A DNA stretch of 56,271 nt, taken from NCBI GenBank assembly GCA_030695905.1, contig JAUYOL010000023.1, positions 1 to 56,271 on the forward strand, written 5' to 3'. This DNA is from Candidatus Omnitrophota bacterium (GTDB lineage Bacteria; Omnitrophota; Gorgyraeia; 2-01-FULL-45-10). The translations under genes and the position numbers were made by a program. Numbering within the stretch: the first letter of the stretch is position 1; each line of letters starts with the position of its first letter. The notes under the pieces are model-generated. The model was not told where the DNA came from, searched no databases, and worked only from the letters and a program-made list of their open reading frames with translations. Of the stretch, positions 1 through 30,773 are shown in pieces.

Positions 1-1
1 T

Positions 2-1426
2 AACCTCTCATTCGACGACGCCTTTAATATAATATTACTTAGCCAGGACCTTGCCGCGGACAGGAGAGGCGACATAATAAACGTAATGACATCTTTGGAG
101 TATGAGAAACTTTACGGCAAGAAATATACCGATAAGAGAAGGATTAAACGTCTAAAGCTAAATTACGCGAAGCCATCAGTCGTCTTTAACGCGTTGGGGC
201 AGTTAAAATCGGATGTGGGCAAGATAATAGTGGATGAGTCGAGCGGGACAGTTATACTTATAGATATACCTGAAAGATTAAAAGTGCTTGAAGAAGCCTT
301 TAACAGGCTCGATCAGCCTCTTGATACCGCCGTCTTTGACCTTAAATACGCGAAGCCGGCCGATATTAAGGCCCATCTATCAAGCGCCATTACGCCCGGG
401 TTAGGCGAGGTCTTTGTCGATGAAAAATCGGGAAAGATAGTGGTATCGGATATGCCGGACAAGATAGCGAAGATAAGAAACGTGATCAGGGCCTTCGATG
501 CGGCCCCGCTGCAGGTATTCATAGAAGCCGAGATAGTGCAGCTTGTGCTCAATGATCAGTTTCAGCGGGGCGTAGACTGGAAGAAGATATTTGGCGATGA
601 AGAATGGATAAAGTGGGCCAAGTTGACAGGGCTGACCCTGGTAGGGCTTTTCCCGGCCACGGGCACTTTTATAGACGGCGCTTTTCAGAAAGTTACAGTA
701 GGCACCCTTGATGCCAATAAGTATACGGGCGTTCTTAAATTTTTACAGACATACGGCAACACCAAGACATTATCCCGCCCGCGTCTTGCCGTAGTGGATA
801 ATCAGGAAGCGAAGATAATGGTAGGCAAAAGAGACGCGTATGTGAGCCAGACCTTAAGCCAGGCACAAACAACCACGGTAACCTCGGAAAGCGTACAGTT
901 CGTGGATGTAGGGGTAAAGTTAAATGTGGTACCCTCCATATCGAGCGATGGCTTCATAGTAATGAAGATAAAGCCGGAAGTCAGTACAGTGGAAAGTATC
1001 CTCACGACATACTTAAAGAGCCAGATACCCATCATCGCGACATCGGAGGCCGAAACGGTGGTAAAAGTAAAAGATGGCACCATGATAATGATAGCGGGGC
1101 TGATGAAAGAAGAGAACGTAGATGATATACAGGGCTGGCCTTATCTATCAAAGGTCAAAGTTCTGGACGCGGCTTTTGGTAATAGATCCACCCAGAGGAA
1201 GAATACCGAACTTATAATATTCATCACGCCTCATATAATAACGGGTGAAGCTCCCGTGGATGACCATACTATGGAGGATCTCTATCCGGCAGACGTTCTC
1301 CCCAGGCCGCTCAAAGAAGACCTTATAGATAAAAAAGTTGGAGAAATAGGAGCCAAAAAAGATAGACAGAATGCAAATAGCAAAAAAGAAGACATCGCTT
1401 CAAAGATGAAAGGGATAAAAAAATGA
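2..1426 (+). CDS. Secretin (PilQ/GspD family outer-membrane channel), 5'-truncated by the window edge
   Basis: The frame is open from nt 2 (NLSFDDAFNIILLSQDLAADRRGDIINV, N0-like), so the ATG at 86 is internal. Two secretin_N-like modules (LKLNYAKPSVV..., FDLKYAKPADI...) precede the secretin core (LSRPRLAVVDNQEAKIMVG, VGVKLNVVPSIS, ELIIFITPHII). Confidence 0.85.
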   Translation, partial: NLSFDDAFNIILLSQDLAADRRGDIINVMTSLEYEKLYGKKYTDKRRIKRLKLNYAKPSVVFNALGQLKSDVGKIIVDESSGTVILIDIPERLKVLEEAFNRLDQPLDTAVFDLKYAKPADIKAHLSSAITPGLGEVFVDEKSGKIVVSDMPDKIAKIRNVIRAFDAAPLQVFIEAEIVQLVLNDQFQRGVDWKKIFGDEEWIKWAKLTGLTLVGLFPATGTFIDGAFQKVTVGTLDANKYTGVLKFLQTYGNTKTLSRPRLAVVDNQEAKIMVGKRDAYVSQTLSQAQTTTVTSESVQFVDVGVKLNVVPSISSDGFIVMKIKPEVSTVESILTTYLKSQIPIIATSEAETVVKVKDGTMIMIAGLMKEENVDDIQGWPYLSKVKVLDAAFGNRSTQRKNTELIIFITPHIITGEAPVDDHTMEDLYPADVLPRPLKEDLIDKKVGEIGAKKDRQNANSKKEDIASKMKGIKK

Positions 1427-1830
1427 GAAATAAAGCATTTAGATTTATATGTTTTGTAATTTTTTTCTTTATGCTGGGGAGTGTAAATTTGTTCGCCGCC
1501 GATAAGGCATCGCTTGAAAAAGAGGTGGTAAAGCTGAAAGAGGAGAACGCGCTCTTAAGCTCTGAGCGGGCCGGCATGTACGAAGAATTAGGCATAGCGT
1601 ATACTAAAGCAGGCCTTCTGGATGAAGCGATAGACGCTTATAAGAAGTCGTTATTTTATAATCCCAATAATGCCCAAATACACTATTATTTGGGGCTTCT
1701 TTACCAAAAGACAAGAAAAGACGTGGAAAAGGCCGTCTCCCATTTTAAAAGATATCTTTACCTTAATCCTGACGCCAAGAATAAGGATGAGGTAAGGTAT
1801 TTGATAGAGATGGTGCAGAATAAAAGATAG
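1423..1830 (+). CDS. Secreted TPR-repeat protein (paralog 1)
   Basis: Signal peptide (FFFMLGSVNLFAADKA) and TPR motifs (LGIAYTKAGLLDEAIDAYKKSL, HYYLGLLYQK). The C-terminal motif SHFKRYLYLNPDAKNKDEV is shared with the next two ORFs. ATGA overlap with the secretin stop. Confidence 0.7.
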   Translation: MRNKAFRFICFVIFFFMLGSVNLFAADKASLEKEVVKLKEENALLSSERAGMYEELGIAYTKAGLLDEAIDAYKKSLFYNPNNAQIHYYLGLLYQKTRKDVEKAVSHFKRYLYLNPDAKNKDEVRYLIEMVQNKR

Positions 1831-1840
1831 AGGGGATAAG

Positions 1841-2449: not shown

Positions 2450-3156
2450 AAGATAAAACTTTTTTAATAGTAGCGGCCGGGATAATAATAGTTTTAAGTA
2501 TATTATGCGCTGTTTTTGTTCTTAATACCTATAATTTGAAAAATAAAGTTGCCCAGAGCAATAGTATTATAGGTAAGATAGAGTCCGAACTTGGCCGCGT
2601 GCGCGAGGAAAAAGAAGAGATAGCGCGCAAGAGCGAAAAACTCTCCTCCGATGCCGTTTCATACTTAGCGATAAATACAAAGCTGGCTGAAGAAAAAGAT
2701 CAGTTGAATAAGAAACTGGAGGGCGCGCAGAAAATTATAGAAGCAAAAGAGGCGGATCTGCAGAGGTCGCAACAAAGGCTCAAGGACATAGAGAAAGAAG
2801 CCGTTACGGCTAAAAAAGCCAAAGATGACAAGCTGGCAAGAGAGAAGAGGTCTTTAGAGAAGAAGATAATCGCTACATCGGCAGCCATAAAAAAAGAGAG
2901 AGCGCTTTATCATTACAACTTAGGCGTGGCGTACGCGCAAGCCAAGCTTTATGATGAAGCGATAGAGGAATATGAAAAGTCGTTGGAATTTGACAGTGAC
3001 AACGCGGACGCTCATTATAATTTAGGTATATTGTATGAGACGATTACCAGTGATGCCGAACGCGCGATGTCCCACTATAAAAAATATCTCGAAATTAATC
3101 CGCGGGCTGAAGATATTGATGAGGTAGCCGGCCGCATAAACAGGCTGAGTAAATGA
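2446..3156 (+). CDS. Membrane-anchored coiled-coil + TPR protein (paralog 3)
   Basis: TM helix, about 120 aa of charged coiled coil, then TPR (HYNLGVAYAQAKLYDEAIEEYEKSL, HYNLGILYE...SHYKKYLEINPRAEDIDEV). ATGA overlaps at both ends. Confidence 0.7.
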   Translation: MKDKTFLIVAAGIIIVLSILCAVFVLNTYNLKNKVAQSNSIIGKIESELGRVREEKEEIARKSEKLSSDAVSYLAINTKLAEEKDQLNKKLEGAQKIIEAKEADLQRSQQRLKDIEKEAVTAKKAKDDKLAREKRSLEKKIIATSAAIKKERALYHYNLGVAYAQAKLYDEAIEEYEKSLEFDSDNADAHYNLGILYETITSDAERAMSHYKKYLEINPRAEDIDEVAGRINRLSK

Positions 3157-3437
3157 GACATATTGTCACCGGGCTTGTTGCCCTTCTGATAATTTTGCTG
3201 ATATTTATAGATGCGTACATTTTTATAGATAGCCAGATGTTAAAGAAGGCTATAGAGGCCAAGTCAAAAGAGCTTATACATAAAGTAAACGAAGATCAGA
3301 AGTTGATTAAAGAACGGATAGAGCGAATACACAAAGAAGATATGGCAGTTTTTTTTGAGAGATATAAAGAATTGGAAAAGGAAAAAAATAGAAGACGGGA
3401 AATGGAGAAAATTTTAAGCGATAAAAAAGTTAAATAA
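3153..3437 (+). CDS. Small membrane-anchored coiled-coil protein
   Basis: 94 aa with one TM helix (VTGLVALLIILLIFIDAYIFI) and a Lys/Glu-rich helix. Translationally coupled (ATGA) to the upstream gene. No recognisable family. Confidence 0.5.
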   Translation: MRHIVTGLVALLIILLIFIDAYIFIDSQMLKKAIEAKSKELIHKVNEDQKLIKERIERIHKEDMAVFFERYKELEKEKNRRREMEKILSDKKVK

Positions 3438-3444
3438 AATAAAT

Positions 3445-3473
3445 TTGCCAAAACGAAAAACCGGTGGTATACT
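3445..3473 (+). promoter_or_regulatory. Sigma70-type promoter, TTGCCA-17 nt-(TGg)TATACT
   Basis: -35 TTGCCA at 3445-3450, 17-nt spacer, extended -10 TGgTATACT (TG 3465-3466, TATACT 3468-3473). The same TGGTATACT occurs at 30846-30854. Confidence 0.55.
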
Positions 3474-3504
3474 TATAGTAGAAGTAAGGAAAGTTAGTAA
3501 TTAG

Positions 3505-3575
3505 GAAAAGGCAAACCCGTAGTAATACGGTGACGCAAAGCAGTGCGTCCGCCAAGTGCGGAACGGCAGGCTGCC
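3505..3575 (+). promoter_or_regulatory. Candidate c-di-GMP-I (GEMM-I) riboswitch aptamer
   Basis: GGCAAACC (3510-3517), a hairpin with GNRA tetraloop CCGUA-GUAA-UACGG (3517-3530), GACGCAAAGC (3532-3541), then a long irregular hairpin 3540-3574. This matches the core of the V. cholerae Vc2 aptamer as I recall it (GGCAAACC-hairpin/GAAA-GGGACGCAAAGCC). I could not build the closing P1 helix by eye. Confidence 0.55.
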
Positions 3576-3594
3576 AAAATTGCAAATATTGTTT

Positions 3595-3623
3595 CCCAGG
3601 CAAGGCAGCCTGGGATTTTTTTT
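3595..3623 (+). terminator. Intrinsic terminator / riboswitch expression platform
   Basis: CCCAGGC (3595-3601) pairs with GCCTGGG (3608-3614) across a 6-nt loop, followed by T8 (3616-3623). GGCAGCCTG (3604-3612) is also exactly complementary to CAGGCTGCC (3567-3575) at the 3' edge of the aptamer. Confidence 0.75.
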
Positions 3624-3682
3624 CAAAATTTTGAAAAGTGCCACGCTGAAATGGTGTTTTAAATGACAAAAAGGAGATAGCA

Positions 3683-4651
3683 ATGCCCAGAGTGCCACGC
3701 ATATACATAGAAAACTCCATTTGCTACGTTACATCCCGGGGCGACCATGATGAGGTCATCTTTAGAGAGGGTGGTGACTATCAAATGTATCTGGAGTTAT
3801 TAAAAAAGGCTAAAGAGCAATACAGGTTCAAGTTATTCGCGTTTTGCCTCCTTCCAAACCACCTGCACCTGCTCATAGAGCCGGATGATGAGGGCGCCAT
3901 ATCCCAGGTTATGCATGGCCTTAATTCGAATTATACAAAATACTTCAATGGCAAATATTCAAAGAGCGGCCATCTGTTTCAGGAAAGATACAAGATGGCG
4001 CTTATTGAAAAATCCCCGAATCTGTTGAATGTTACCGCTTATATACATTTAAATCCTAAGGCCCTGGGCATAGCCGCTGAAATTAAGGATTACCCCTATT
4101 CGAGTTACCCCGCTTACCTGAACGCGAAGACGGCCATTATAAATATAGGAGGAGAGGTAAGAGAGATATCGGGGTATCTTAGCGGAAAAAAATATGAAGA
4201 TTTTATTTCCGGCATAGCGCTTGGCTTTTTGCAGGATCTCGGCAAAGAGCTGTCAAAAAGACCCATAATAGGATCCGATGAATTTGTGGAAAAGGTAAAG
4301 AATAAAATCGAGAGCGATAAATTAAGGGTCGCGGAAGGTTCGCTCTCCGGCTCCATGTTCGGTATTATGTCCGGCAGGAAATTTCTCGCGGCATCGGGTG
4401 TGGCAATTGTCCTGCTCGGGGCATTGACATTTTATCTTTATTCAAGGGCATCGGCATTCAAGGACAACCTTAAGAATAAGGAATCCGAATTCAGCGGCCG
4501 GTTATTAAAAGCTAAAGACGATCTTAAGAAAGATCTTGAAGGAAAATATCGCGCGGATATGGTCTCTTTTGAGGCGATGACAAAACGTCTTGAGATGGAG
4601 AAGCAAAAGGCCGGGGAGCTGGAAGAGCAGCTTAAATCCCAACAGCCTTAA
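3683..4651 (+). CDS. HUH/Y1 (IS200-like, REP-associated tyrosine transposase-like) domain protein with a C-terminal TM helix and coiled coil
   Basis: The first ~150 aa match the COG1943/Y1_Tnp pattern: YHVxxRG-like YVTSRGDH, HUH motif LLPNHLHLLIEP, GHLFQERYK, and catalytic Tyr context TAYIHLNP. A TM helix (AASGVAIVLLGALTFYLY) and a Lys/Glu coiled coil follow. RBS aaaGGAGa lies 6 nt upstream. Confidence 0.75.
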   Translation: MPRVPRIYIENSICYVTSRGDHDEVIFREGGDYQMYLELLKKAKEQYRFKLFAFCLLPNHLHLLIEPDDEGAISQVMHGLNSNYTKYFNGKYSKSGHLFQERYKMALIEKSPNLLNVTAYIHLNPKALGIAAEIKDYPYSSYPAYLNAKTAIINIGGEVREISGYLSGKKYEDFISGIALGFLQDLGKELSKRPIIGSDEFVEKVKNKIESDKLRVAEGSLSGSMFGIMSGRKFLAASGVAIVLLGALTFYLYSRASAFKDNLKNKESEFSGRLLKAKDDLKKDLEGKYRADMVSFEAMTKRLEMEKQKAGELEEQLKSQQP

Positions 4652-4666: not shown

Positions 4667-7600
4667 ATGATTACCATGAAGACAAATTTAATTGCAAAGA
4701 GGGCGTTTTCAGGTTTCGTGGTGACATGTTTTATGCTCTTCTCCTCCTTGTATATATGGGCCGCCTATTCCCAATGGACCGACTCGAACTGGGCCCCTAC
4801 AAGCACTTATGTATACAAAACCGCCGCTATAAATACGTCCGGTCCGGGACTTAAGATTGATCCCGAAGTCGTGCCTGTTACAGATAGTGCCGCGAGCGAT
4901 TTTTTAAAAGGTACGAAGGGTCCTAATGTAATGATAGCTGGAAGTCCCGATGCCAGCCTTGAACTTGCGCCCACAGTGGATCCTTTTCCCGCCACTCTCG
5001 GGCAATGGGGCGAGTTGCCGTCTATACCTGCCCCGGGCGTCTACACGCGTTATATGAGGATGGGCGATTATATATATTGCATATTTGCCTCTGGAGACGG
5101 CAGGCAATTCGGCAGGATAAAGATAAGTGATATGTCGGATCCCGCAAAATTTCCGAAATGGGAGTTTTTGGAGCCCCTGCCTGTGGGGGTATCGGCAGGC
5201 ACCGCCGTTACTAATGACGGTGAGTATATATATGTATTGCGCGGCAGCGGTTCAAAAGAGGTTTATTTCTACCTTCCTCCGGAAATTACCGACCCGGATC
5301 CAGGTGATACCAAATTTCCATTCCTCTCTCCCGGTCCGGGCGAGTGGAAGAAATTTGGTACCGATACAATTCGTCTTACACAGGCTGCCAATGTTGGAGC
5401 GGATATTGCGCATACAGGTAGTCCTCTGTCTACAAAAAACGGTTATCTATATGTATTGAGCGGGGGAGATTCAAGTATATACTCCCGGTATGACCCCAAC
5501 GGCATTCTTAGTAATCTATGGGGAGGCCGCGCCGGGCTGACCGGTATTTTGGTTAATAGCGGAGCAAGTTTGTCCGTCAAGCCAGGCGATAATTATATCT
5601 ATGCTTCGATACCGAATACGAATAACATTAGGAAATATACAATTACCGATAATGTCTGGGCAACGAATATGCCTCCATTGCCTGTGGATACCGCAGGCCA
5701 TTCGCCGAGTTTTACGAGAGGCGCCAGGATATATTATCCCGGCTCCGGCGAATATTTATATGCATGCGGCATTTCAGAGACTTATGTGGGCCCTTACTAC
5801 ACGACAAAAACAAACCGCGGATTTTATAGATTTGGCCCTATTACCGGGACGCCGGCCTGGACACGTCTGGATGACTTACCCGCCCAGCTTTCAGAATATG
5901 GTTTCGTGATATACGATCCTGATATTGGCACCGCGAGTGAAGGCACGCGGCTGCATCTCGTTTCAGGGAAAAATTATACACGTCCGTGGGAATACAGCGT
6001 TACAAATAGTAAATGGAATACCCTTTCACAGGCGCCTCTTAGGAAAAATGGCATGGCATTGATCTCTCCAGGCCCCGGCAGCGACTATCTCTATTATGTG
6101 CCGGCAGATACAACTAATAATTTTTTCCGCTACACGATCTCCCGTAATAGATGGGAAGAGTTGAAGTCTTTGCCGGATAATATCGGCTCTGCCGGAAACC
6201 GTATCACGTATCTCAACGGATATGTATATTGCTTGCAGGGAAATAACAATAGTGGTTTCTGGCGTTACGATGTCAGTCAAGCTCCTGGAGCTGATAGCTG
6301 GGACATATCCCTTCCTCCCTTTCCTCTTACAGCGGGCGGCGGATCCGGAATAGTCGGTGTCAGATCGGGGGGCAATGATTATATATACGCCTTGCGCGCA
6401 AGCGGTACCAATACTTTTTATAGGTATGGTGTTACCAGCCAGGCATGGGAACCAATGGCAAATGCGCTGAATGTGTTTAGTGGGAACGGTATGGTATATC
6501 CGGGTTATCAGGAATCAGATGGCTATACCTATATATATGCCTCGTCAGATGGTGGTAGCGGCAACTTCTATAGATATGGGCCTATAGAGGAGGACGTGGA
6601 TGGAAATGGGGATGGCGTTATAGGCCAATGGCAGGCGAGAGCGCCGACTCTGTTTGGGAATGGAGCCGGATTTATGGGTATAGGAGCCCACTTATATTAT
6701 GTAGGCGAAGGAAAGATACGCGCTTCTCTTAAAAGTGGTACCTCTCAAAATCTTGTCTATTACATCGATACAAATATCTGGGAACTTAAAGAGCCCCTTC
6801 CATTTTATGATGGTATCAGCGCGCTTACTTCAGATGAGACAAGCATCTATGCTCTTTATGGTTATAGCGATGGCGGGTTCGCCAGATTTGATCTGGCCGG
6901 CCAATCATGGAATGAACCTGTGGTAAGCAGACATGGCTCTATCGCAGGTAATGCCGTAAGTGATAAGGATAAGAATATATATTTCGCATATGGGTACACC
7001 TGGTATAACACAGGTATGGATGCCTGGCATATATGGGTCTATTCACCGTCTTTAAGGCGCTGGACAGGTCTGATGAGGTGTCCTTTCTGGATAGCCAAAG
7101 GCACAAAGGCTGCCTATCTACAGGGTAAGAACGCTCTATTTATTACAAAAGGATCCGGATCAACCAAGCTTTATAAATATGATGTATCCTCGGGTCAATG
7201 GAGCGACTGCAACCCCGGAGACAGATTTTATGCCAATACACAGGTATGCGCAGGATATACAGAGAACGGCACTATGGAGGCAGTATATGCCGTAGGAGGA
7301 CCGAGTGGCAATACCCTATATATGTATTCTCCGGATGCGGATAGCTGGACATCGCTTATTACAGGGTTGCAGGTTTCTACCAAGCAATCTAATGTTATGG
7401 CGTATGTAAACGGTAAGATTTATGTGATAGCATTGGGGACCGGGGATCTTTACGCTTTCGATGGAACCAGCTGGGAACCGAAGGGGAAAATAGGGGGCGC
7501 AAATCCGGTATCTACGGATGAAGGCTGCGCTTTATTCAATAAGTCCGGTTCTAATTACCTGTATTGCATACCGTCATCTCCATCCGATTTATTTTTAAGA

Positions 7601-19906: not shown

Positions 19907-21400
19907 ATGCAAAAGAGTACAGTTATTTCGAGCCTCGATATACGCGAGGTAGGCGCTGTAAAAGAAGTAAAACAGGGCATAGTAAAAGTATCGGGACTTC
20001 CTTCCTGCATATTTGGCCAGCTGGTCGATTTTGGCCACGGCCAAAAGGGTATGGTGATGGGGTTCAATCAGTACGAAGTCCTTGTCATCGTGCTCGGCGA
20101 CGATTCCAGTATTAATACAGGTGATACCGTAACGAGCCGTTCTGAGTTATTGACGGTTCCCGTCGGGCCGGGGTTTGTCGGGCGTGTCGTGGACTGTCTT
20201 GCCAGGCCTATAGATGCCAGAGGCGACATAAAGGCGGCCGATAATTATCCGGTCTTCCGCGAGGCGCTCGGAGTTATGGAGCGCGAGCCGGTGACAGCGC
20301 CGCTAGAGACGGGAACAAAGATACTTGATATGGTGATCCCGATAGGCAAGGGCCAGAGAGAACTTGTAATCGGCGACCGGCAGACGGGGAAGACATCTAT
20401 CGCGCTCGACGCTATCCTGAATCAAAAAGGCAAAAATGTTATCTGCATATACTGCTATATAGGCGGCAGCCAGTCCGCGCTTAAAAAAACGATGAGCCTT
20501 TTAAATGAAAAAGCCGCGTCGCCATACACAATTGTTTTATGCGCTACCGCATCGAGTACGCCTGCCGAACAATACCTTGCGCCATATGTAGCCGCGTGTC
20601 TGGGCGAATATTTCATGTTCAATGGCCAGGATGTCCTGCTCATCTTCGATGATCTTACAAAACACGCGTGGGCATACAGGCAATTATCGCTTTTGTTGGA
20701 ACGGCCGCCGGGCAGAGAAGCTTACCCGGGCGATATATTTTATATCCATTCGCAGTTGATGGAACGCGCCGGTAAATTAAAGGCAGGCCTTGGCGGCGGA
20801 ACGATGACATTTTTACCTATAGCATCCACGCTGCAGGGCGATATCACAGGTTATATACAGTCGAACCTGGTTTCAATGACCGACGGGCAGATATATTTAA
20901 GTTCCGCCTTATTCTATGAAGGGTTTAAGCCGGCGATAGATCTTGGCTTGTCCGTTTCGCGTATAGGAAGCAAAGTTCAGTCTCCCGCTATACGTAATGT
21001 AAGCGGAGGCTTAAGGCTCCAATATGCGCAGTACCGAGAACTCCAGAGACTTACAAGGCTAAGGACGAAATTGTCCAAAGAGGCCATGGATCAGATAAGG
21101 CGGGGCGAGACCTTAAGAGAGCTTCTTATACAGGAGAACGGCAAGCCCGTGAGCATGGCCGAAGAGATAGTGATATTCTACGCGTTCAAAAAACGCATTC
21201 TGGAAATCCTGAAGCCGGATGTGCTGAAAAATTTTAAAAGAGAATTCTTCAAGTATCTTTGCAACGTAGAACCGATGCTGGTCGACAAAATAGAAAAAGA
21301 GCAGACGCTTACCGACGATATAACGACGTCGCTGGACCGTAATATAGTGAACTATTTCCAGGATACGAACCATTTGACAAAAGCTCATGGTTCGTCCTGA
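19907..21400 (+). CDS. atpA: F-type ATPase alpha subunit
   Basis: Walker A GDRQTGKTS, then LAPYVAACLGEYF, DDLTKHAWAYRQLSLLLERPPGREAYPGDIFYIHSQLMERA and ITDGQIYL-like SMTDGQIYLSS. Confidence 0.9.
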   Translation: MQKSTVISSLDIREVGAVKEVKQGIVKVSGLPSCIFGQLVDFGHGQKGMVMGFNQYEVLVIVLGDDSSINTGDTVTSRSELLTVPVGPGFVGRVVDCLARPIDARGDIKAADNYPVFREALGVMEREPVTAPLETGTKILDMVIPIGKGQRELVIGDRQTGKTSIALDAILNQKGKNVICIYCYIGGSQSALKKTMSLLNEKAASPYTIVLCATASSTPAEQYLAPYVAACLGEYFMFNGQDVLLIFDDLTKHAWAYRQLSLLLERPPGREAYPGDIFYIHSQLMERAGKLKAGLGGGTMTFLPIASTLQGDITGYIQSNLVSMTDGQIYLSSALFYEGFKPAIDLGLSVSRIGSKVQSPAIRNVSGGLRLQYAQYRELQRLTRLRTKLSKEAMDQIRRGETLRELLIQENGKPVSMAEEIVIFYAFKKRILEILKPDVLKNFKREFFKYLCNVEPMLVDKIEKEQTLTDDITTSLDRNIVNYFQDTNHLTKAHGSS

Positions 21401-21427: not shown

Positions 21428-23688
<2,261 letters not shown>

Positions 23689-25359
23689 ATGAAGATAGGC
23701 GATATACTTGTTCAGAAAGGTTTAATAACGCAGGCCGAGCTTGATAAGGCGCTTAAGGCCAGCCAGAAGTCCGGGGATATATTAGGCAAGACCCTGGTGC
23801 GTCTTGGCCTGATAACCGAAGAGAAGCTGCTCGAAATATTAGCCGAACAGCTCTGCCTCCCGTATTATCCCAACCTTAAAGATATTTCCATATCCCCCGA
23901 CCTGATTCAGCGGGTGCCGGCCAAATTTGTCCTTCACTATAAATTTATGCCGCTGATGATAAAGGGAAATCAGCTTACTATAGCGGTATCCGATCCTCTG
24001 GCGGTATGGCTGATAGAGGATCTAAAGCTTCATCTCGGGTATGATGTCGAAAGAGTTCTCGCGCCGGAAGAAGAGATTATGAATTCTATAAGACTGTACT
24101 ACGGGATCGGCGCGGAGACGGTCGAAGAGATAATGACTCAGGACACGGTAACAGTTGAGGAAAAGAAGGCGTCCAGGGAAGAGGTGGAGGATCTTGAGAG
24201 GACCGCCCAGGACGCATCCGTCATAAAACTTGTTAATCAGATATTATCCGAAGCTGTCGGGGCGAGGGCAACCGACATACATATAGAAGCGTACCGCGAC
24301 AGGATCCGCGTGAGGCAGCGTATAGACGGCATCCTGTATGATATGCGAGTGCCGGAACAGATAAAATATCTTCACGCGGCGATAGTTTCGCGCATAAAGA
24401 TATTGTCAAACCTGAATGTGGTCGAGCGCCGCCTGCCGCAGGATGGCCGCGCGATAATAAAGGTCCGCGATAAACAGGTCGACTTGAGAATTTCGATAAT
24501 ACCGTCGCTTTACGGGGAAAATGTAGTAATAAGGATACTTCCGGTGCACCTATTGTTTAATTTAGACGATCTTGGCCTGTTCCCCGAAGAGAGAAAGGCT
24601 ATAGAAGCGCTGATGGAGAAGCCGCACGGCATAATACTATTGACCGGCCCTACCGGCAGTGGAAAAACTACAACTCTTTATACATGCCTTACAAAATTAA
24701 ATACCGACGAGGTTAAGATAATAACTATAGAGGATCCTGTAGAATACGAGCTTCCCGGCGTTACGCAGATACAGGTCAGGCCGGAGATAGGGCTGACATT
24801 CGCGAACGCTCTTCGCAGCATATTAAGGCATGACCCTGATGTAATGATGGTAGGAGAAATAAGAGACCTTGAAACGGCCGAACTTGCCATCAGGACAGCC
24901 CTTACGGGACATCTGATATTTTCCACTCTGCATACAAATGATTCCGCCAGCGGCGCGACAAGACTTATGGATATAGGTATAGAGCCGTACCTGGTAGCGT
25001 CGAGCGTGAACGCGTTTATATCGCAAAGGCTCGTCAGGGTGATATGCCCGGACTGCAAGGAAGAGATGAAGAATAAAGAAACGCTGCCTTCTTTCCTTAA
25101 AAATGTAAAAGTTTATCATGGCAAAGGGTGTGAGTCATGTAAATTTATAGGTTATAAAGGCCGTACCGCGATATATGAAATATTACTCGTTACCGAAGAG
25201 ATTCAGGATCTTATACTACAGCGCGCGTCGTCCGCCCAGATAGCGAAAAAGGCGAAGGATCTGGGTTTTAAGACACTGCGCGATTCCGGCATAGTGAAGA
25301 TAAAGATGGGTGTTACCACGCCGGAAGAGGTTTTGCGCGCCACGGAATTGGAAGATTAA
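23689..25359 (+). CDS. gspE: GspE/PilB/MshE-family secretion/pilus assembly ATPase with an MshEN-like N-terminal domain
   Basis: N-terminus KIGDILVQKGLITQAELDKAL...ILGKTLVRLGLITEEKLLEILAEQ, Walker A GPTGSGKTTT, and the tetracysteine CPDC...CESC. The ATG directly follows the atpD stop codon (23686-23688). Confidence 0.9.
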   Translation: MKIGDILVQKGLITQAELDKALKASQKSGDILGKTLVRLGLITEEKLLEILAEQLCLPYYPNLKDISISPDLIQRVPAKFVLHYKFMPLMIKGNQLTIAVSDPLAVWLIEDLKLHLGYDVERVLAPEEEIMNSIRLYYGIGAETVEEIMTQDTVTVEEKKASREEVEDLERTAQDASVIKLVNQILSEAVGARATDIHIEAYRDRIRVRQRIDGILYDMRVPEQIKYLHAAIVSRIKILSNLNVVERRLPQDGRAIIKVRDKQVDLRISIIPSLYGENVVIRILPVHLLFNLDDLGLFPEERKAIEALMEKPHGIILLTGPTGSGKTTTLYTCLTKLNTDEVKIITIEDPVEYELPGVTQIQVRPEIGLTFANALRSILRHDPDVMMVGEIRDLETAELAIRTALTGHLIFSTLHTNDSASGATRLMDIGIEPYLVASSVNAFISQRLVRVICPDCKEEMKNKETLPSFLKNVKVYHGKGCESCKFIGYKGRTAIYEILLVTEEIQDLILQRASSAQIAKKAKDLGFKTLRDSGIVKIKMGVTTPEEVLRATELED

Positions 25360-25365: not shown

Positions 25366-26592
25366 ATGCCGAAATTTTTGTATAAAGCAAAACACGGCCT
25401 TGACGAGACGTTCGAAGGTGAGATAGAAGCGTCAAATCAGGACGAAGCCCTCAAGAGGCTCATGGCCAGGGGACTCTTCCCCGTAAGCATAACGGAATCC
25501 GCCCCTAAAGAAAAAAAGCAGACAAAAAAATTTCAATTAAAACTGGGCGGCAGTAGAATAGGCGCCGGCGAGATATTGGTCTTTACCAGAAAGCTCGCTA
25601 CCCTTACAAGGGCAAAGGTAGAGTTGTTACCAAGCCTTAAGATCCTGTATGAACAGACCGAAAACGAAAAATTTAAATCCATAATACTGGAACTCTATAA
25701 TGGCACAAAGGAAGGCACTCATTTTTCCGAAAGCCTTGCCCGCTATCCCGAAATTTTCCCGTCCCTGTATATAAATATAATCAGGGCCGGCGAGGCAAGC
25801 GGTCATCTTGATGCGGGCCTCGATCAGATAAGCGAATTTATGAGCCGCGAAGAGAGCTTGAAGTCAAAAGTGCTTACGGCCCTCGCGTATCCGGCGCTTC
25901 TGCTTATAGTGGGCCTTACCAGTATATTTGTGCTAATAAATTTTGTTATTCCCAAACTTAAACCTATATTTGAAAATGTCGGCGCGAAAGAACTTCCGGC
26001 GATAACAAAGATAATACTTAATATAAGCGTTATATCCAATAAGATATGGTGGGTGGTGCTTTTAGCGATCGCCGCCACAGTGATATTTATATATTATCAG
26101 AAGGGCGCGCCTTATTTTAAGAACATAACAAGAAAGATAAAGTCGCACCTTCCCGTTATAAAAAATCTAAGCAAGAATCAGGAGCTGGCGCATCTGTCGC
26201 GTTCTCTGGGACTTTTGTTGAAAAGCGGCGTGCCCGCGTTAAGGTCGTTGGAAATAATAACTCCCGGTATAGAGAATGATGCCTTAAAAGAAGAGATAAG
26301 ATCGGTTTGCCGCGATGTCGCTTCGGGACAATCGATAGCGCAAAGCATGGGGGCCTCTACGAACTTGCCGTCGTTTTTTGTAAAGATGATAGCCGTAGGC
26401 GAGGAATCCGGCAGGCTTTCGGAAGTATTAGATGAATTGTCGAGGTCATATACACAGCAGATAGAAGCCGATATAGCCATAATCTCCTCTCTTATAGAGC
26501 CCGTTTTAATATTAGCCCTTGGAATTATTTTAGGCACTATAGTGCTTTCTATACTTTTGCCCACGTTCCAGGTAACCCAGATAGTGCATTAA
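25366..26592 (+). CDS. gspF: GspF/PilC-family inner-membrane platform protein
   Basis: Two T2SSF-type repeats (FTRKLATLTRAKVELLPSL...; LAHLSRSLGLLLKSGVPALRSLEI) and three TM segments. Confidence 0.88.
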   Translation: MPKFLYKAKHGLDETFEGEIEASNQDEALKRLMARGLFPVSITESAPKEKKQTKKFQLKLGGSRIGAGEILVFTRKLATLTRAKVELLPSLKILYEQTENEKFKSIILELYNGTKEGTHFSESLARYPEIFPSLYINIIRAGEASGHLDAGLDQISEFMSREESLKSKVLTALAYPALLLIVGLTSIFVLINFVIPKLKPIFENVGAKELPAITKIILNISVISNKIWWVVLLAIAATVIFIYYQKGAPYFKNITRKIKSHLPVIKNLSKNQELAHLSRSLGLLLKSGVPALRSLEIITPGIENDALKEEIRSVCRDVASGQSIAQSMGASTNLPSFFVKMIAVGEESGRLSEVLDELSRSYTQQIEADIAIISSLIEPVLILALGIILGTIVLSILLPTFQVTQIVH

Positions 26593-26594
26593 TT

Positions 26595-28555: not shown

Positions 28556-28556
28556 A

Positions 28557-28602
28557 CCCCGCACATTCTTCAATGTGCGGGCTAGTAGGAGAATGTGCGG
28601 GG
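28557..28602 (+). promoter_or_regulatory. Hairpin with a duplicated 3' arm spanning the pseudopilin RBS/start (possible translational coupling switch)
   Basis: CCCCGCACATT (28557-28567) can pair with AATGTGCGGG (28572-28581; 10 bp, 4-nt loop) or with AATGTGCGGGG (28592-28602; 11 bp). The second pairing encloses the SD AGGAG (28587-28591) and covers the candidate starts ATG 28593 and GTG 28602. Confidence 0.5.
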
Positions 28603-28994
28603 TGAAGAACAGAGCGTTTTCGCTGATAGAACTCATGGTAGCGGTGTCGGTGCTGGCAATCGGCATCATTATGATAGCACGCTCTTTCCTCTCGGCGTCC
28701 AGCGCCATAAATAACGGTGAGCACAGGATACTTGCTTTGAATCTTCTCGGAGAAAAGATGAGCGGTATTGAAGAGCAGGCGCTTAAAGGAATAGATAAGC
28801 TCGATGATATCAACGAGAATATCACCATCAATTTTAAGGCGTTTACCGTCAGGTCTGATATAAGCCTGATAAAGATAGACGAAGACAGCAAGGAGAATAT
28901 CAATAGTATAGTATTGAGCGCGCAGTGGCTGGAGGGCACAAAGTCCTACGATGAGGTCGTCGCGACGTATATCGATTTTGGCAGGAAAGAATAA
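28602..28994 (+). CDS. Minor pseudopilin (GspI-like) with a prepilin N-terminal motif
   Basis: (V)KNRAFSLIELMVAVSVLAIGIIM. GTG 28602 lies 10 nt after SD AGGAG, and ATG 28593 is an alternative. The TTG at 28542 in the ORF track would overlap pilO and add a non-pilin leader. Confidence 0.7.
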   Translation: MKNRAFSLIELMVAVSVLAIGIIMIARSFLSASSAINNGEHRILALNLLGEKMSGIEEQALKGIDKLDDINENITINFKAFTVRSDISLIKIDEDSKENINSIVLSAQWLEGTKSYDEVVATYIDFGRKE

Positions 28995-28995
28995 T

Positions 28996-29550
28996 ATGCA
29001 TAACAAACGAGCATTCACCCTCATAGAGACGCTTCTTGCGATGACGATATTTGCTTTTATAGGGCTGGGCATAGCGATGAGCTTTTTTTCAGGCATCAAG
29101 CTATGGGATCGCGCCACGACCTCCGGACTTTGGATAAATGATATGGTATTGAACTTCGAAACCGTTTCCAAAGAACTGCGTCAGAGCCTCGATGTGCCCG
29201 CTATAGGCTTCGAAGGCGATATAAAAAGTTTTTCTTTTCCGGGATTATCGGGAAACAAAATTGTGAAGGTCTCCTACTCTTTTGACGCGGCCGCGAAAGC
29301 TATCAAAAGAAGCGAGACGATGATAAAAGATATTATCGAGGAAAAAATGAAGGTCGAATCCGTAGAAAAAAACGCTTTTCCTTTGGATGAATTTTCGGCC
29401 CAGTATTTAAAGATGGACAAGGATTCTAAAAGCCTTGAGTGGAAAGATGAGTGGAAGAAAGAAGACGGCATATTTATCGCGGTAAGGTTTAAAGGCAAAT
29501 CGCATAATGAAGAATTTCAAAAGACAATATTCATACCTATCGCGCAATAA
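28996..29550 (+). CDS. Minor pseudopilin (GspJ-like)
   Basis: MHNKRAFTLIETLLAMTIFAFIGLGIAM. ATG 28996 comes 1 nt after the upstream stop and is preceded by aGGAAAg. The longer ORF-track start (28951) was rejected. Confidence 0.7.
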   Translation: MHNKRAFTLIETLLAMTIFAFIGLGIAMSFFSGIKLWDRATTSGLWINDMVLNFETVSKELRQSLDVPAIGFEGDIKSFSFPGLSGNKIVKVSYSFDAAAKAIKRSETMIKDIIEEKMKVESVEKNAFPLDEFSAQYLKMDKDSKSLEWKDEWKKEDGIFIAVRFKGKSHNEEFQKTIFIPIAQ

Positions 29551-30364
29551 AGGCAGTATCCTTGTGGTGTCTGTCTGGGTACTGGTCGCGTTCTCTATCT
29601 TAAGCGTCGGCCTATACGGCATAGTCTCATCGCGCTTAAAGGTTGCCCAGGTTCTTGAGGGCAGGGTGACGGGCCAATACCTGGCCAAAGCCGCGTGTGT
29701 CTGGTTCAAGGCCAAGCAAGCGTCGGGAAAGGAGCCTCTCGACACCATATCGAAATTACAGGAAAAGCAGGTCCATGAATTTGGCAGGTGGAAATTTACC
29801 TATACGCTGACCGACGAAGAGAGCAATATAAATATAAATACAGCTTCTATGGATGTGATTTCAAGGCTCCCGGGTTTTGATAAGGAATTAGCGGAAGAAG
29901 TGTATGAATCGAAACTTAAGCCATTCAATGTTAAAGAGGGATTGCTTTTGATAGAAGGCGTAAGCGAGGAAGCTTTCAACAGCTGTAAAGATATCATAAC
30001 GGTTTATGGCTCCGGCGGCGTCAATATAAATACCGCTGATACGCAAGTATTACAAGTTTTGGGGTTAGATACGAGCCTGATAGATTTGATAAAAAGTTTC
30101 AGGGCGGGACCCGACGGTAAAGAAGGCACGGCAGATGACGGTATATTCGCAAGTACAACCGAAATAATCAATAATCTGCGCTCTTATTCATCATTATTCG
30201 AGGCCCAGGAGGCGAAGCTTGTCCAGCTGATAAGCCAGAACGCGCTTGTCACATCATCCCAGGCTTTTACATTGAATATTGAAACTACTATTCTCGAAAA
30301 GGCAATGATGAGGTATAATATTGTTGTGGATAAAGATAAGATTAAACGCTGGGAGGAACTTTAA
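29507..30364 (+). CDS. GspK-like minor pseudopilin
   Basis: N-terminus RNKGSILVVSVWVLVAFSIL and two helix-hairpin-helix-like motifs (NINTASMDVISRLPGF, VNINTADTQVLQVLGL) typical of GspK. Overlaps the upstream gene by 44 nt. Confidence 0.65.
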   Translation: MKNFKRQYSYLSRNKGSILVVSVWVLVAFSILSVGLYGIVSSRLKVAQVLEGRVTGQYLAKAACVWFKAKQASGKEPLDTISKLQEKQVHEFGRWKFTYTLTDEESNININTASMDVISRLPGFDKELAEEVYESKLKPFNVKEGLLLIEGVSEEAFNSCKDIITVYGSGGVNINTADTQVLQVLGLDTSLIDLIKSFRAGPDGKEGTADDGIFASTTEIINNLRSYSSLFEAQEAKLVQLISQNALVTSSQAFTLNIETTILEKAMMRYNIVVDKDKIKRWEEL

Positions 30365-30365
30365 T

Positions 30366-30773
30366 ATGCTTAAAAAAGGTTTTACGCTCATTGAGCTTAT
30401 GCTCGTTGTTATAATAATAGGCATTCTCGTTGCTATGATAGTTCCTCGTATGGCCGGCAGATCCGAACAGGCCCGCATCGCCGTTGCGCAGGCCGATGTT
30501 GACCTGAATATCGCGACAGCGTTGAAACTTTATGAGATCGATAATGGCGCGTTCCCTACGACTGATGAAGGGCTGCAGGCATTGCTTTCAGCGCCTCCTT
30601 CGGCTAAGAATTGGAAAGGGCCTTATCTGGATAAGAAGCCGTTGGACCCATGGAATAATCCATATCAATATAAAAGCCCCGGCACGCATAGGACTCACGA
30701 TTACGATCTGTGGTCAAATGGCAAAAGCGGGGTTGAAGGCGCGGACGTTATTGGCAATTGGCAGAAGCAATAA
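30366..30773 (+). CDS. gspG: Major pseudopilin GspG
   Basis: MLKKGFTLIELMLVVIIIGILVAMIVPRM...ALKLYEIDNGAFPTTDEGLQALL...WKGPYL...DPWNNPYQYKSPG...YDLWSNGKSG. ATG 30366 comes 1 nt after the upstream stop. Confidence 0.9.
   Translation: MLKKGFTLIELMLVVIIIGILVAMIVPRMAGRSEQARIAVAQADVDLNIATALKLYEIDNGAFPTTDEGLQALLSAPPSAKNWKGPYLDKKPLDPWNNPYQYKSPGTHRTHDYDLWSNGKSGVEGADVIGNWQKQ

Follow-up and report, generated by a model that had tools for sequence, protein, structure and literature searches.

A conserved gene block of Omnitrophota that joins a T2SS-like machine, a giant surface protein, a c-di-GMP riboswitch and an F-type ATPase without subunit a

An association of F-type ATPase genes with pilus genes in Omnitrophota has been published: according to Seymour et al. 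(2023), T4P genes are located no more than 10 kb from the α subunit gene on 57 of 66 contigs, and the α subunits are set apart from those of "respiratory" F-ATPases and cluster with the type 2/3 ATPases of Mycoplasma. T2SS-like loci adjoin Omnitrophota giant genes (West-Roberts et al., 2023), and a 2026 preprint reported incomplete F1Fo in complete Omnitrophota genomes. An earlier, sequence-only reading of the locus analysed here knew of no described system of this composition; the publications on the ATPase/pilus pairing and on T2SS-like loci next to giants take away part of that claim, while several other parts of the block appear to be undescribed.

The window, i.e. the whole stretch of 56,271 nucleotides that was analysed, contains at positions 1–30773 a gene block of about 31 kb which is conserved in the little-known phylum Omnitrophota, and in which a c-di-GMP RNA switch and an F-type ATPase, with no subunit a in the block, accompany a secretion machine and a giant surface protein. 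All parts named by the sequence-only reading are present at or near the positions it gave; its count of about 30 genes was too high, the block comprising 23 tightly packed genes, all on the + strand. The packing it described was confirmed, with junctions of 0–34 nt or 4-nt overlaps (0 nt at the peptidase/ε and β/GspE junctions), whereas the shared direction is no property of the block, every gene of the 56-kb window being on the + strand with positive GC skew throughout. Shared direction and tight packing are both found genome-wide here, which counts against reading the block as one unit. The three interruptions noted previously hold a promoter, an aptamer and a terminator (3438–3682), two palindromes (17003–17077), and a hairpin with a second promoter (30774–30940). 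No comparable + strand terminator was found between 3.7 and 30.8 kb. The downstream boundary (30779..30855, + strand) consists of the hairpin (30779–30799) and a promoter whose –10 region, TGGTATACTT, repeats that at 3465; on the + strand, this exact string occurs only at 3465 and 30846, one copy at either end of the block. The gene after the block (~30942–33838) is not syntenic in relatives.

Conservation of the block was assessed in 41 γ-anchored, GTDB species-level Omnitrophota loci with γ identities down to 32%. The order giant–p264–peptidase–ATPase–GspE…GspG was kept across these loci, so the parts are not freely separated, and the proposal that they form one unit gained support. Among the ATPase genes, c and b-δ were each present in 29/31 and ε in 28/29 loci; GspE followed β in 31/31, and GspF was present in 27/28, the GspK-like protein in 21/21 and GspG in 19/21. 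The gene of p264 was found in 20/22 loci, the giant C-terminus in 18/19, and the peptidase in 17/22, counting those relatives for which the sequence was long enough. Equivalent neighbours recurred when the search was seeded with p264 in place of the divergent γ, loci anchored on the N-terminus of the giant showed a matching upstream order (secretin–TPR–riboswitch–RAYT–giant), and the gene order matched in contigs from Logan, ENA, JGI and NCBI. One MAG, Makaraimicrobium thalassicum B134_G9, contains two divergent ATPase+GspE loci, suggesting that the pair was duplicated together, unless this reflects a binning error. The complete genome CP070797.1 contains a T2SS-like set with only a truncated α (residues 259–488), γ and β, and without c, b-δ, ε, giant or p264 genes nearby, indicating that the T2SS part can do without the full ATPase.

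The block begins with a secretin gene of the GspD/PilQ family (1..1426, called at 86–1426; Pfam Secretin, E 6e-44, plus Secretin_N), the best NCBIfam match of which is GspD, under its cutoff. The reading frame is open from base 2 and hence cut by the window edge; orthologues comprise 575–656 aa and are preceded by genes for MerR, an ExeA-like AAA ATPase, and a GspC-like protein. Three TPR protein genes (1423–1830, 1841–2449, and 2446–3156; Pfam TPR families), which keep their place after the secretin gene in relatives, each code for an N-terminal signal or TM segment. The N-termini examined are hydrophobic and contain no lipobox Cys, so that the comparison with TPR lipoproteins acting as pilotins is no more than an analogy. 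The product of the next gene (3153..3437), 94 aa long, has a TM helix and a coiled coil but no Pfam match; a gene for a protein of 95–106 aa occupies the equivalent position in relatives. The protein matches residues 239–321 of the product of 3683..4651 (BLASTP E 2e-5), and is paralogous to the C-terminal module of that product, a membrane-anchored RAYT-like (HUH/Y1) protein of 322 aa (Pfam Y1_Tnp, 4e-15; NCBIfam REP_Tyr_transpos, 70 bits at a cutoff of 80). In the RAYT-like protein, HUH is largely conserved, Tyr120 is invariant, and a TM helix (~234–252) precedes a conserved C-terminal coiled coil; its AF2 model (pLDDT 84) best matches PDB entry 4er8_A (E 4e-9). The upstream order in relatives is MerR, ExeA-like ATPase, GspC-like protein, secretin, TPR proteins, small protein, riboswitch, RAYT-like protein, and giant.

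Between the genes of the small and the RAYT-like protein, all on the + strand, a sigma-70-type promoter motif TTGCCA-17-(TG)TATACT (3445..3473) is followed by a c-di-GMP-I (GEMM-I) riboswitch aptamer (3500..3579; Rfam RF01051, 54.7 bits versus a gathering score of 35) and an intrinsic terminator with an 8-bp stem and T8 (3594..3623), the putative expression platform, which is the best-scoring + strand terminator-like site in 1–36 kb. The layout TTGxxx-(16–17)-TATACT also occurs 5' of the aptamer in three relatives (L007, L008, L009). Of 29 informative metagenome loci, 25 yielded a homologous aptamer at the equivalent position in a covariance-model screen; when 14 loci were re-tested, every one scored above the Rfam gathering score. 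In essentially all relatives a terminator comes next, 5–27 nt past the aptamer. Complementarity between the 3' strand of the aptamer and the loop and 3' arm of the terminator is significant in about half of the loci; by this folding argument, which is weak in about half of them, c-di-GMP probably terminates transcription (OFF switch). In many relatives, a REC-GGDEF cyclase gene is located inside the locus. The block thus has three separate c-di-GMP links, namely the riboswitch, a motif of GspE (see below), and the REC-GGDEF protein of relatives, so that the case for c-di-GMP control is stronger than the sequence-only reading had held.

The giant gene (4667..17002) codes for a secreted protein of 4111 aa (Pfam Kelch, DUF2341, Kre9_KNH Ig-like; Laminin_G_3 from the stored annotation of the same contig), composed of an N-terminal Kelch-like β-propeller, DUF2341/LamG, Ig-like repeats, a conserved C-terminal domain, and a coiled coil. 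As previously proposed, an N-terminal signal-like segment is its only hydrophobic helix. The C-terminus, ending in ...KPVTQTWFEYK, is conserved among relatives, and orthologues of 4250–4610 aa occur at the equivalent position. Between the giant and p264 genes, two 19-bp palindromes TATCTAACC(A/T)GGTTAGATA are placed 35 bp apart (17009..17062, no strand assigned); they are found nowhere else in the window, and the number expected by chance is 0. The closest relatives lack the palindromes and have a gap of ~20 nt, and the pair is a lineage-specific insert rather than a core part. p264 (17078..17872, 264 aa, no Pfam match) comprises a signal peptide, a β-sandwich (24–95), three helices, a conserved TM helix (189–220) with invariant residues, and an acidic/basic tail; no structural relatives of its AF2 model (pLDDT 79) were found in the PDB. 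Among the top 120 of its 255 homologues, all source-named ones are labelled Omnitrophota/Omnitrophica. Because giant and p264 form a single ORF in three deep-branching loci (L044, L045, L046), joined in frame exactly at the mature N-terminus of p264, p264 is assigned as the split-off membrane anchor of the giant; the two read as halves of one ancestral polypeptide anchored by its C-terminal TM helix, and the natural fusion is direct evidence that at least these two parts work together. The following gene (17869..18684) codes for an MA-family zinc metallopeptidase with a HEMAH motif and an N-terminal signal or anchor (Pfam Peptidase_MA_2, 6.5e-19).

The start codon of the F-ATPase ε gene (18685..18921; Pfam ATP-synt_DE_N, 2.5e-15) abuts the peptidase stop codon. 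The 78-aa product (orthologues, 74–100 aa) comprises only the N-terminal β-sandwich, without the C-terminal domain, which is inhibitory in canonical enzymes. Subunit c (18926..19138, 70 aa; Pfam ATP-synt_C) contains the ion-binding Glu, which within F(A/S)E(A/G)IA is invariant in 34 loci, and is followed by a b-δ fusion (19153..19872, 239 aa; Pfam ATP-synt_B + OSCP), i.e., a stator stalk with an N-terminal TM helix. F1 α (19907..21400, Pfam) matches canonical bacterial F1 α sequences of the PDB at E values of ~1e-130 to 1e-142. F1 γ (21428..22300; Pfam ATP-synt, 1e-36) is divergent, its 58 homologues being, where a source is named, nearly all labelled Omnitrophota/Omnitrophica, with one labelled Candidatus Aerophobetes. 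F1 β (22297..23688) has an intact catalytic site (GGAGLGKS P-loop, GER, DNVFRF, DDLTDPA); it scores 488 bits to 9nvl_D, an engineered F1 β with ancestral core domains, and ~455–465 bits to natural bacterial F1 β, but only 351 bits to Mycoplasma G1-ATPase β, and thus is nearer to canonical F1. No AtpB-like (subunit a) sequence was found in the block or in the ~130 related loci searched, nor was any unassigned gap in related loci able to hold one.

Directly abutting the β stop codon, the gene of a GspE/PilB-type assembly ATPase (23689..25359; Pfam T2SSE, 1.5e-129) codes for an N-terminal MshEN region. Two 24-residue MshEN motifs are visible in its N-terminus, and residues 2–54 match NCBIfam NF053729 (c-di-GMP_motif) with 62.4 bits at a curated cutoff of 38; the N-terminus is predicted to bind c-di-GMP. 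The adjacent genes code for a GspF/PilC platform protein (25366..26592; Pfam T2SSF, 2.4e-56; best NCBIfam match GspF), a PilM-PilN fusion with GspL-like architecture (26595–28025; Pfam PilM_2, PilN), and a PilO/GspM-like protein (28022–28555; Pfam PilO and T2SSM_b, both weak). Two minor pseudopilins (28593–28994 and 28996–29550; Pfam N_methyl) and a GspK-like HhH protein (29507–30364; Pfam HHH_3) gave weak NCBIfam matches (GspJ, PilV, GspK); start codons in 28593..30364 are from gene calls on an identical Logan contig. The major pseudopilin GspG (30366..30773; NCBIfam TIGR01710, 138.7 bits at a cutoff of 88.85; Pfam T2SSG, 1.4e-30) completes the set.

We consider it fairly probable that the block is a single Omnitrophota-specific envelope-machine locus. 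Judged from adjacency and conservation, the giant β-propeller/LamG/Ig protein would be exported by Sec, held at the inner membrane by p264, and pushed through the secretin by the T2SS-like machine, composed of the GspE motor, a GspF/L/M-like platform, a pseudopilus of GspG tipped by a GspK-like protein, and the secretin assisted by the TPR proteins, to be displayed as a means of attaching to host or prey cells; the MA peptidase may process or release it. c-di-GMP, which in many relatives would be made by the REC-GGDEF enzyme encoded within the locus, might couple supply, via the riboswitch (probably OFF), and export, via GspE binding. The F-type complex without subunit a, probably not the ATP synthase of the cell, would most likely be an ATP-driven rotary motor, whose b-δ stator and c-ring probably interact with some component of the machine in place of subunit a. 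That the giant is the substrate of the T2SS-like machine, and that the ATPase contacts this machine, we infer from the same conserved neighbourhood. At 440 kDa, the giant is large for a T2SS substrate, and the ordinary-looking α/β and the Glu of c would also fit a proton-coupled enzyme with subunit a encoded elsewhere; both observations count against this explanation.

The latter observation leads to a rather unlikely alternative, namely that the genes code for an ordinary F1Fo ATP synthase/ATPase whose subunit a is encoded at another site, and which is placed between the peptidase and GspE genes through inherited gene order, without mechanical or functional coupling to secretion. It would account for the fact that α and β possess all catalytic motifs and match F1 of canonical bacterial type (E ~1e-130 to 1e-145), for the greater distance of β from Mycoplasma G1-ATPase, and for the invariant Glu of c, a sign of ion coupling and thereby of a partner in the stator; the window, moreover, is one co-oriented gene array. 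It is at odds with the adjacency of ATPase and GspE in 31/31 species loci, down to 32% γ identity and with abutting stop and start codons, with the absence of subunit a from all of the ~130 loci, with the shortened ε, with the possible joint duplication in B134_G9 (or binning error), and with the position of α apart from the "respiratory" clade in Seymour et al. (2023).

Extending the reading of Seymour et al. (2023), who report that α clusters with the Mycoplasma enzymes, the block might by analogy specify a surface motility or attachment engine like that of Mycoplasma mobile, with an F1-like motor, the giant and its p264 anchor as a "leg", and pilus-like genes which only build or anchor the structure; this we regard as improbable. 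A giant surface protein (4.1–4.6 kaa) with a TM anchor always adjoins the ATPase, and the truncated ε fits a hydrolysis-only enzyme. Giant and p264 would presumably correspond to the M. mobile legs Gli349/Gli521; however, no Gli-like domains were found. Moreover, the locus retains c and b-δ, which Mycoplasma ATPase clusters do not have, and its β is more similar to canonical F1. Secretins are outer-membrane channels, so the cell apparently has two membranes, the outer one of which a leg would need to cross. That independent operons (outer-membrane set, riboswitch-controlled adhesin, ATPase, pilus) were merely juxtaposed by streamlining and strand bias is very improbable: the single strand of all 56 kb, the interruptions at 3438–3682 and 17003–17077, and the T2SS part of CP070797.1 without giant or most of the ATPase would fit, but an order conserved in dozens of species with several anchors, the giant–p264 fusion in some lineages, the lack of detectable + strand terminators within the block, the shortness of the second interruption in close relatives (~20 nt), and the three c-di-GMP links do not.

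In the literature, we found no description of the riboswitch of the block, the giant with its p264 anchor, the peptidase, the REC-GGDEF insert that is frequent in relatives, or the fact that subunit a is consistently missing although the neighbouring c subunit has an invariant Glu. Taken together with the mechanism outlined for a single envelope machine, and with the same moderate confidence, we regard the block as a larger version of the locus that Seymour et al. (2023) reported as "symbiotic F-type ATPase / type-4a-pilus".

The block at 1–30773 comprises 23 genes (Pfam and NCBIfam), and the parts that the sequence-only reading had named in it were confirmed with Pfam, NCBIfam and Rfam. All of them are on the + strand. 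A secretin ORF that is open at the left window edge (Pfam Secretin and Secretin_N) is accompanied by three genes for TPR proteins (Pfam) and a gene for a 94-aa protein with a TM helix and a coiled coil (3153–3437), which lies upstream of a c-di-GMP riboswitch. The riboswitch is followed by the gene of a RAYT-like Y1/HUH protein (3683–4651; Pfam) and by a 12-kb gene (4667–17002) for a giant protein of 4111 aa, which contains Kelch, DUF2341, LamG and Ig-like domains and whose sole hydrophobic segment is N-terminal. Further downstream, genes code for p264, a protein of 264 aa (17078–17872), a Peptidase_MA_2 protein with a HEMAH motif (17869–18684; Pfam), an F-type ATPase in the order ε-c-bδ-α-γ-β (18685–23688; Pfam), with an ε subunit of 78 aa that consists of the N-terminal domain only and a δ subunit fused to b, and a T2SS-like set (23689–30773; Pfam and NCBIfam) of GspE, GspF, a PilM-PilN fusion, a PilO-like protein, two pseudopilins, a GspK-like HhH protein and GspG. 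The junctions of the block are overlaps or gaps of 0–34 nt; the stop codon of the peptidase gene abuts the ε start, and the β stop and the GspE start abut at 23688/23689. Since the gene-like ORFs are on the + strand over the full 56 kb, with a positive GC skew everywhere, the co-directionality of the block is weak evidence when taken alone. On the + strand, the –10 string TGGTATACTT is confined to positions 3465 and 30846, the two ends of the block, and no + strand terminator comparable to that of the riboswitch was found between these two sites.

Beyond the block, the window contains a TpsB-like gene as well as redox/oxidative-stress and glycogen genes. At 30942–33838, an ORF (about 965 aa) has its own promoter, has no Pfam match and is not syntenic; relatives have an IMPDH or HMGL-like gene after GspG. 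The co-oriented run at 33983–45374 consists of genes for anaerobe redox and oxidative-stress functions, encoding an Rrf2 regulator, a 4Fe-4S protein, a hybrid-cluster protein, a peroxiredoxin fused to pterin-4a-carbinolamine dehydratase, a 2-oxoacid:ferredoxin oxidoreductase, a flavin reductase, a flavodiiron protein, a ferritin/rubrerythrin-like protein, a superoxide reductase, a thioredoxin-reductase-like protein and Ogg. A TpsB/ShlB-type two-partner-secretion transporter is encoded at 52739–54856; an adjacent TpsA partner is not obvious, and the 268-aa ORF right after the gene has no Pfam match.

The sequence-only reading had interpreted the block as a single integrated surface system and had proposed a synteny search, which we performed from several anchors; the same neighbours were found in the same order almost everywhere. 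A γ-anchored scan of a single genome per GTDB species yielded 41 loci, onto which the window proteins were mapped by tblastn. Among the loci with enough sequence, β was followed by GspE in 31/31, and GspF was present in 27/28, the GspK-like protein in 21/21 and GspG in 19/21. The ATPase subunits c and b-δ (29/31 each) and ε (28/29) were similarly frequent, as were p264 (20/22), the peptidase (17/22) and the C-terminus of the giant protein (18/19). Independent contigs from Logan, ENA, JGI and NCBI showed a matching order, as did contigs anchored on p264. The RAYT-like protein and the N-terminus of the giant protein, used as anchors, recovered the order MerR, ExeA-like AAA ATPase, GspC-like protein, secretin, TPR proteins, small protein, riboswitch, RAYT-like protein and giant protein. 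About 48 metagenome loci caught by the N-terminal propeller of the giant protein encode Kelch-propeller proteins of 23–29% identity without the neighbours; they were treated as non-orthologous and not as counter-examples.

Conservation fails chiefly in one complete genome, CP070797.1, where the T2SS-like set occurs with a truncated α, γ and β only, and where the giant protein, p264, c, b-δ and ε are not encoded near this set. In this genome (loci L004/L025, 9229–9933), α is represented by its C-terminal half only (residues 259–488), with the gene of a PAS protein ahead of it. Intact γ, β and T2SS-like genes are present, β being separated from GspE by a response regulator gene. Its ATPase is possibly decaying. 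Two divergent ATPase and GspE loci, L018 and L045, occur in one MAG, Candidatus Makaraimicrobium thalassicum B134_G9, with γ subunits of 47% and 36% identity to that of the window; GspF is apparently missing from L018. Their co-occurrence suggests co-duplication, or else a binning artefact or mixed bin. Source-named γ homologues are nearly all from Candidatus Omnitrophota/Omnitrophica, with one from Candidatus Aerophobetes, and the source-named p264 homologues among the matches listed carry Candidatus Omnitrophota/Omnitrophica labels. Omnitrophota MAG titles predominate among the 41 genome loci; the titles of several others read ‘uncultured Planctomycetia/Planctomycetales’ or ‘PVC group’.

A physical link between two of the parts is provided by gene fusion. 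In three loci of deep-branching BS750m MAGs and Makaraimicrobium (L044, 43–5910; L045, 85–2694; L046, 10–5625), the giant protein and p264 form a single ORF, which indicates that p264 is the C-terminal module of the giant protein. The join is located exactly at the mature N-terminus of p264 (…QTWYEYR|SVVLK…NPS), which in the lineage of the window has its own signal peptide. Together with the conserved gene order, this fusion supports the reading of the block as one system. The predicted structure of p264 (AF2 pLDDT 79) comprises a β-sandwich, a bundle of three helices and a single TM helix that contains invariant residues; a structure search found no PDB match below E 0.03, and the full-length giant protein, searched by sequence against the PDB, retrieved weak Kelch matches only. 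The gap between the two genes contains two perfect 19-bp palindromes, TATCTAACC(A/T)GGTTAGATA, at 17009–17027 and 17044–17062, 35 bp apart, which are unique within the window. In the closest relatives this gap is about 20 nt long, and other relatives have hairpins in it that are unrelated to the palindromes. A role as conserved operator was rejected as a core feature, the palindromes being missing from close relatives, and a role as REP elements of the RAYT-like protein was likewise rejected as core, since they form a single occurrence in the window and are absent in close relatives.

In the RAYT-like protein, the HUH motif is largely conserved and the Tyr is invariant; a TM helix and a conserved coiled coil are also present. 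Its fold matches 4er8_A (E 4e-9; target-normalised TM-score 0.71), and it scored 70 bits with the curated model NF047646, under the cutoff of 80. No flanking REP arrays were seen at its gene; the sole palindromes, at 17009–17062, are 12 kb off, occur once and are not conserved. More than 4800 homologues of the family were detected, and the source-named ones in the best 120 are all from Omnitrophota/Omnitrophica. The 94-aa protein encoded at 3153–3437 is paralogous to the C-terminal module, TM helix and coiled coil, of the RAYT-like protein (E 2e-5), and several relatives have a short RAYT-like-similar fragment directly upstream of the riboswitch. The RAYT-like and giant genes are separated by three extra genes, including one for a radical SAM protein, in one related locus (L008, 7933–9935), and lie about 2–3 kb apart in L056–L064.

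The c-di-GMP-I aptamer (RF01051) is located at 3500–3579 and scored 54.7 bits in Rfam, at a gathering score of 35. A promoter (TTGCCA-17-TATACT, 3445–3473) lies 5′ of it, and a terminator (3594–3615, with T8 to 3623) begins 14 nt past it, which is the top-scoring + strand terminator-like site in the first 36 kb. The aptamer core GGCAAAC...GACGCAAAG is canonical; the aptamers of some relatives scored higher with the GGC-variant model. The 3′ strand of the aptamer, CAGGCUGCC, is complementary to the loop and 3′ arm of the terminator, and aptamer and terminator do not overlap. To judge from this layout, the element would be a ligand-induced terminator, that is, an OFF switch, an assignment which we put at probable and no higher because the complementarity was significant in about half of the 20 relatives with a script-detected terminator. 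The terminator behind the aptamer is conserved in relatives. The riboswitch was present in 25 of the 29 metagenome loci having enough upstream sequence, and all of the 14 homologous aptamers that were re-tested exceeded the Rfam gathering score (48.9–65 bits). As the RNAalifold-based structure of our covariance model R1 differs from the true GEMM-I fold, R1 was used as a sequence screen only and its hits were re-checked with Rfam. Among the relatives with upstream sequence, the closest one, L007, has its aptamer split just after GACGC by a GC-rich hairpin about 55 nt long (9765–9904, corresponding to L054 8756–8895; 31 bits in Rfam); this insertion may be tolerated, or the switch may be dead. 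A direct repeat, GTGCCACGC, is found in the leader past the terminator (3638–3646) and in codons 4–6 of the RAYT-like gene (3692–3700). L007 has both copies or near copies, and L008 and L009 have that of the leader. The repeat may be a site for protein binding or be left over from a 5′ duplication. A full-text search combining riboswitch, Omnitrophota and c-di-GMP found nothing beyond the ComFB paper and its preprint, which do not concern this locus.

A second candidate contact with c-di-GMP is in GspE, residues 2–54 of which match the MshE-type c-di-GMP motif NF053729 of NCBIfam (62.4 bits; cutoff 38). At the first position of the tandem 24-residue MshEN motifs, one motif has Lys and the other Ile instead of Arg. 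A gene for a REC-GGDEF diguanylate cyclase (about 291 aa, GGEEF) located between peptidase/p264 and ε is absent in the window, though present in many relatives (L019, L024, L028, L030, L031, L033, L034, L038, L041 and L132); in L131, stand-alone REC genes flank ε.

In the T2SS-like set, GspG passed TIGR01710 as an equivalog (138.7 bits; cutoff 88.85), and most other components scored below the equivalog cutoffs. The best NCBIfam model for the secretin was GspD, at 196 bits and a cutoff of 351; GspE and GspF matched Pfam T2SSE (1.5e-129) and T2SSF (2.4e-56), respectively, and GspE and PilB models were indistinguishable for the former (579 vs 586 bits, each under its cutoff). The PilM-PilN fusion is GspL-like in layout, the matches to PilO/T2SSM_b, GspJ and GspK are weak, and a GspC-like gene was recognised by a faint match only, in relatives, upstream of the region covered by the window. 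Neither a PilA-type major pilin nor PilT was found in the window, where the major pilin is of the GspG type and a single T2SSE-family ATPase is encoded. On account of the GspG score, the GspK-like protein, the GspL-like PilM-PilN fusion and the lack of PilT, we read the machine as T2SS-like rather than as T4aP. A prepilin peptidase GspO (Peptidase_A24) was not detected by Pfam in the 45 window ORFs of at least 80 aa and may be encoded elsewhere in the genome; in CP070797.1, a Peptidase_A24 gene lies 8 kb upstream.

Subunits α and β of the ATPase are nearest, by similarity, to canonical bacterial F1 (E about 1e-130 to 1e-145), and the P-loop, catalytic Glu and Walker B motifs of β are intact. 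Among the small proteins of the locus, the c subunit is the most conserved, with a Glu that is invariant in 34 loci, and ε lacks the C-terminal helices. Because α and β look canonical and the c Glu is conserved, the main rival to a dedicated function, namely an ordinary F1Fo complex with its subunit a encoded elsewhere, is kept alive, albeit as an unlikely explanation. Pfam ATP-synt_A had no match among the 45 window ORFs of at least 80 aa, and an insensitive tblastn search with E. coli AtpB as query found no match in the window and about 130 related loci; ‘a-less’ is therefore a description of the locus, not of the genome. The ATPase does not fit the description of Mycoplasma type 2/3 ATPases as α/β-like paralogues that lack Fo and differ from housekeeping F1, as c and b-δ are present and β is nearer to canonical F1 (455–488 bits to canonical-type F1 β vs 351 to the Mycoplasma G1-ATPase β, 9io5_A). 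A subunit a hidden in the gaps of related loci was dismissed, these gaps holding REC-GGDEF, REC or nucleotidyltransferase-like genes or no ORFs, and p264 is not a divergent subunit a, given its signal peptide, β-sandwich, three helices and one TM helix.

We prefer a dedicated machine, the proposed working of which is as follows. The propeller/LamG/Ig protein would be translocated by Sec and stay tethered to the inner membrane through p264; a GspG pseudopilus would then drive it out via the secretin, so that it could be displayed for attachment, and the MA peptidase might trim or free it. Binding of c-di-GMP could couple supply, through the riboswitch (probably OFF), with export, through GspE. 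The a-less F-type complex would probably act as an ATP-driven rotor engaging some partner of the machine. The more specific proposal, that it is a rotary motor whose c-ring and b-δ stator dock, in place of subunit a, on a different membrane component encoded in the locus, is held tentatively and is rather doubtful; candidate docking partners would be the strongly conserved TM helix of p264 or the GspF/L/M platform.

The pairing of ATPase and pilus genes is not new. ‘Symbiotic’ F-type ATPase genes by type-4a-pilus clusters were described for every Omnitrophota class by Seymour et al. 2023 (Nat Microbiol; PMC10066038), in passages that place the two gene sets within 10 kb on 57 of 66 contigs, liken the ATPases to Mycoplasma types 2/3, report co-location and an α phylogeny that puts these subunits outside the respiratory clade, with Mycoplasma types 2/3, and name the machine T4aP. 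The locus in the window is one such locus, from the same phylum, with F-type α, β and γ genes and GspE/PilB, GspF/PilC and PilM within 10 kb. The keyword-found passages of PMC10066038 make no mention of a missing subunit a beside c, b-δ and ε, a Kelch/LamG protein of about 4 kaa with a p264 anchor, an MA peptidase, a riboswitch or a REC-GGDEF insert. T2SS-like loci beside Omnitrophota giant genes are described by West-Roberts et al. 2023, and an incomplete F1Fo in complete Omnitrophota genomes by a 2026 preprint; in the passages and supplements covered by keyword search, the riboswitch, the protein of about 4 kaa with its anchor, the peptidase and the missing subunit a are not mentioned. The earlier claim that no described system has this composition has to be narrowed: this kind of locus has already been published, while several of its features appear to be undescribed.

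What had been published as a co-location of F-type ATPase and pilus genes becomes a defined parts list of 23 genes and a riboswitch, with testable links: the c-di-GMP riboswitch, the putative c-di-GMP-binding GspE and the in-locus cyclase of relatives; the membrane anchor of the giant protein, encoded here by a gene of its own and in other lineages fused to the protein as a domain; and an F-type ATPase with a c subunit and its essential Glu, yet never with subunit a beside it. Omnitrophota are ultra-small, uncultured and probably predatory or parasitic bacteria, and few large gene blocks linked to this lifestyle are as conserved as the present one. Should the rotor dock on another membrane component as tentatively proposed, the block would be an envelope nanomachine of a new class, whose F-type rotor drives the export, tensioning or movement of a giant surface protein under c-di-GMP control. 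If the ATPase is the motor of the machine rather than an ATP synthase, it would be the second independent case, after Mycoplasma gliding, of an F1 rotor put to use outside energy conversion, and the first to keep the c subunit.

With type II secretion systems the locus shares the secretin, GspE, GspF and GspG, and it has candidate counterparts of further components in the GspK-like, GspL-like PilM-PilN and GspM/PilO-like proteins and, in relatives, in the GspC-like and ExeA-like genes upstream; it differs in being split by the giant-protein module and a six-gene F-type ATPase, in the predicted c-di-GMP-binding MshEN motif of GspE and in the absence of a prepilin peptidase gene from the window. 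Like the GEMM-I riboswitches Vc2 and C. difficile Cd1, for which control of surface and adhesion genes is the typical setting, the aptamer scores above the Rfam gathering threshold, shows the canonical GACGCAAAG core and has an intrinsic terminator downstream, whereas the first gene controlled here is that of a membrane-anchored RAYT-like protein, followed by the 12-kb adhesin-like gene. The RAYT-like protein has the HUH motif, conserved Tyr and fold of RAYT/TnpA_REP (PDB 4er8), but carries an extra 170 aa with the TM helix and conserved coiled coil and has a fixed place behind the riboswitch. Compared with bacterial F1Fo ATP synthases, α, β, γ, ε, c and b-δ are recognisable and the β motifs and c Glu intact, whereas subunit a is missing from this and the related loci, ε lacks its C-terminal domain, and the genes, in the order ε-c-bδ-α-γ-β, are packed gapless against those of the peptidase and GspE. 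With the Mycoplasma type 2/3 F1-like ATPases (the M. mobile gliding motor, G1-ATPase), the complex shares an F1-derived ATPase outside the context of ATP synthase and the adjacency to genes of very large surface proteins; to our knowledge, c and b are absent from the Mycoplasma clusters, whereas here c and b-δ are present and β is closer to canonical F1.
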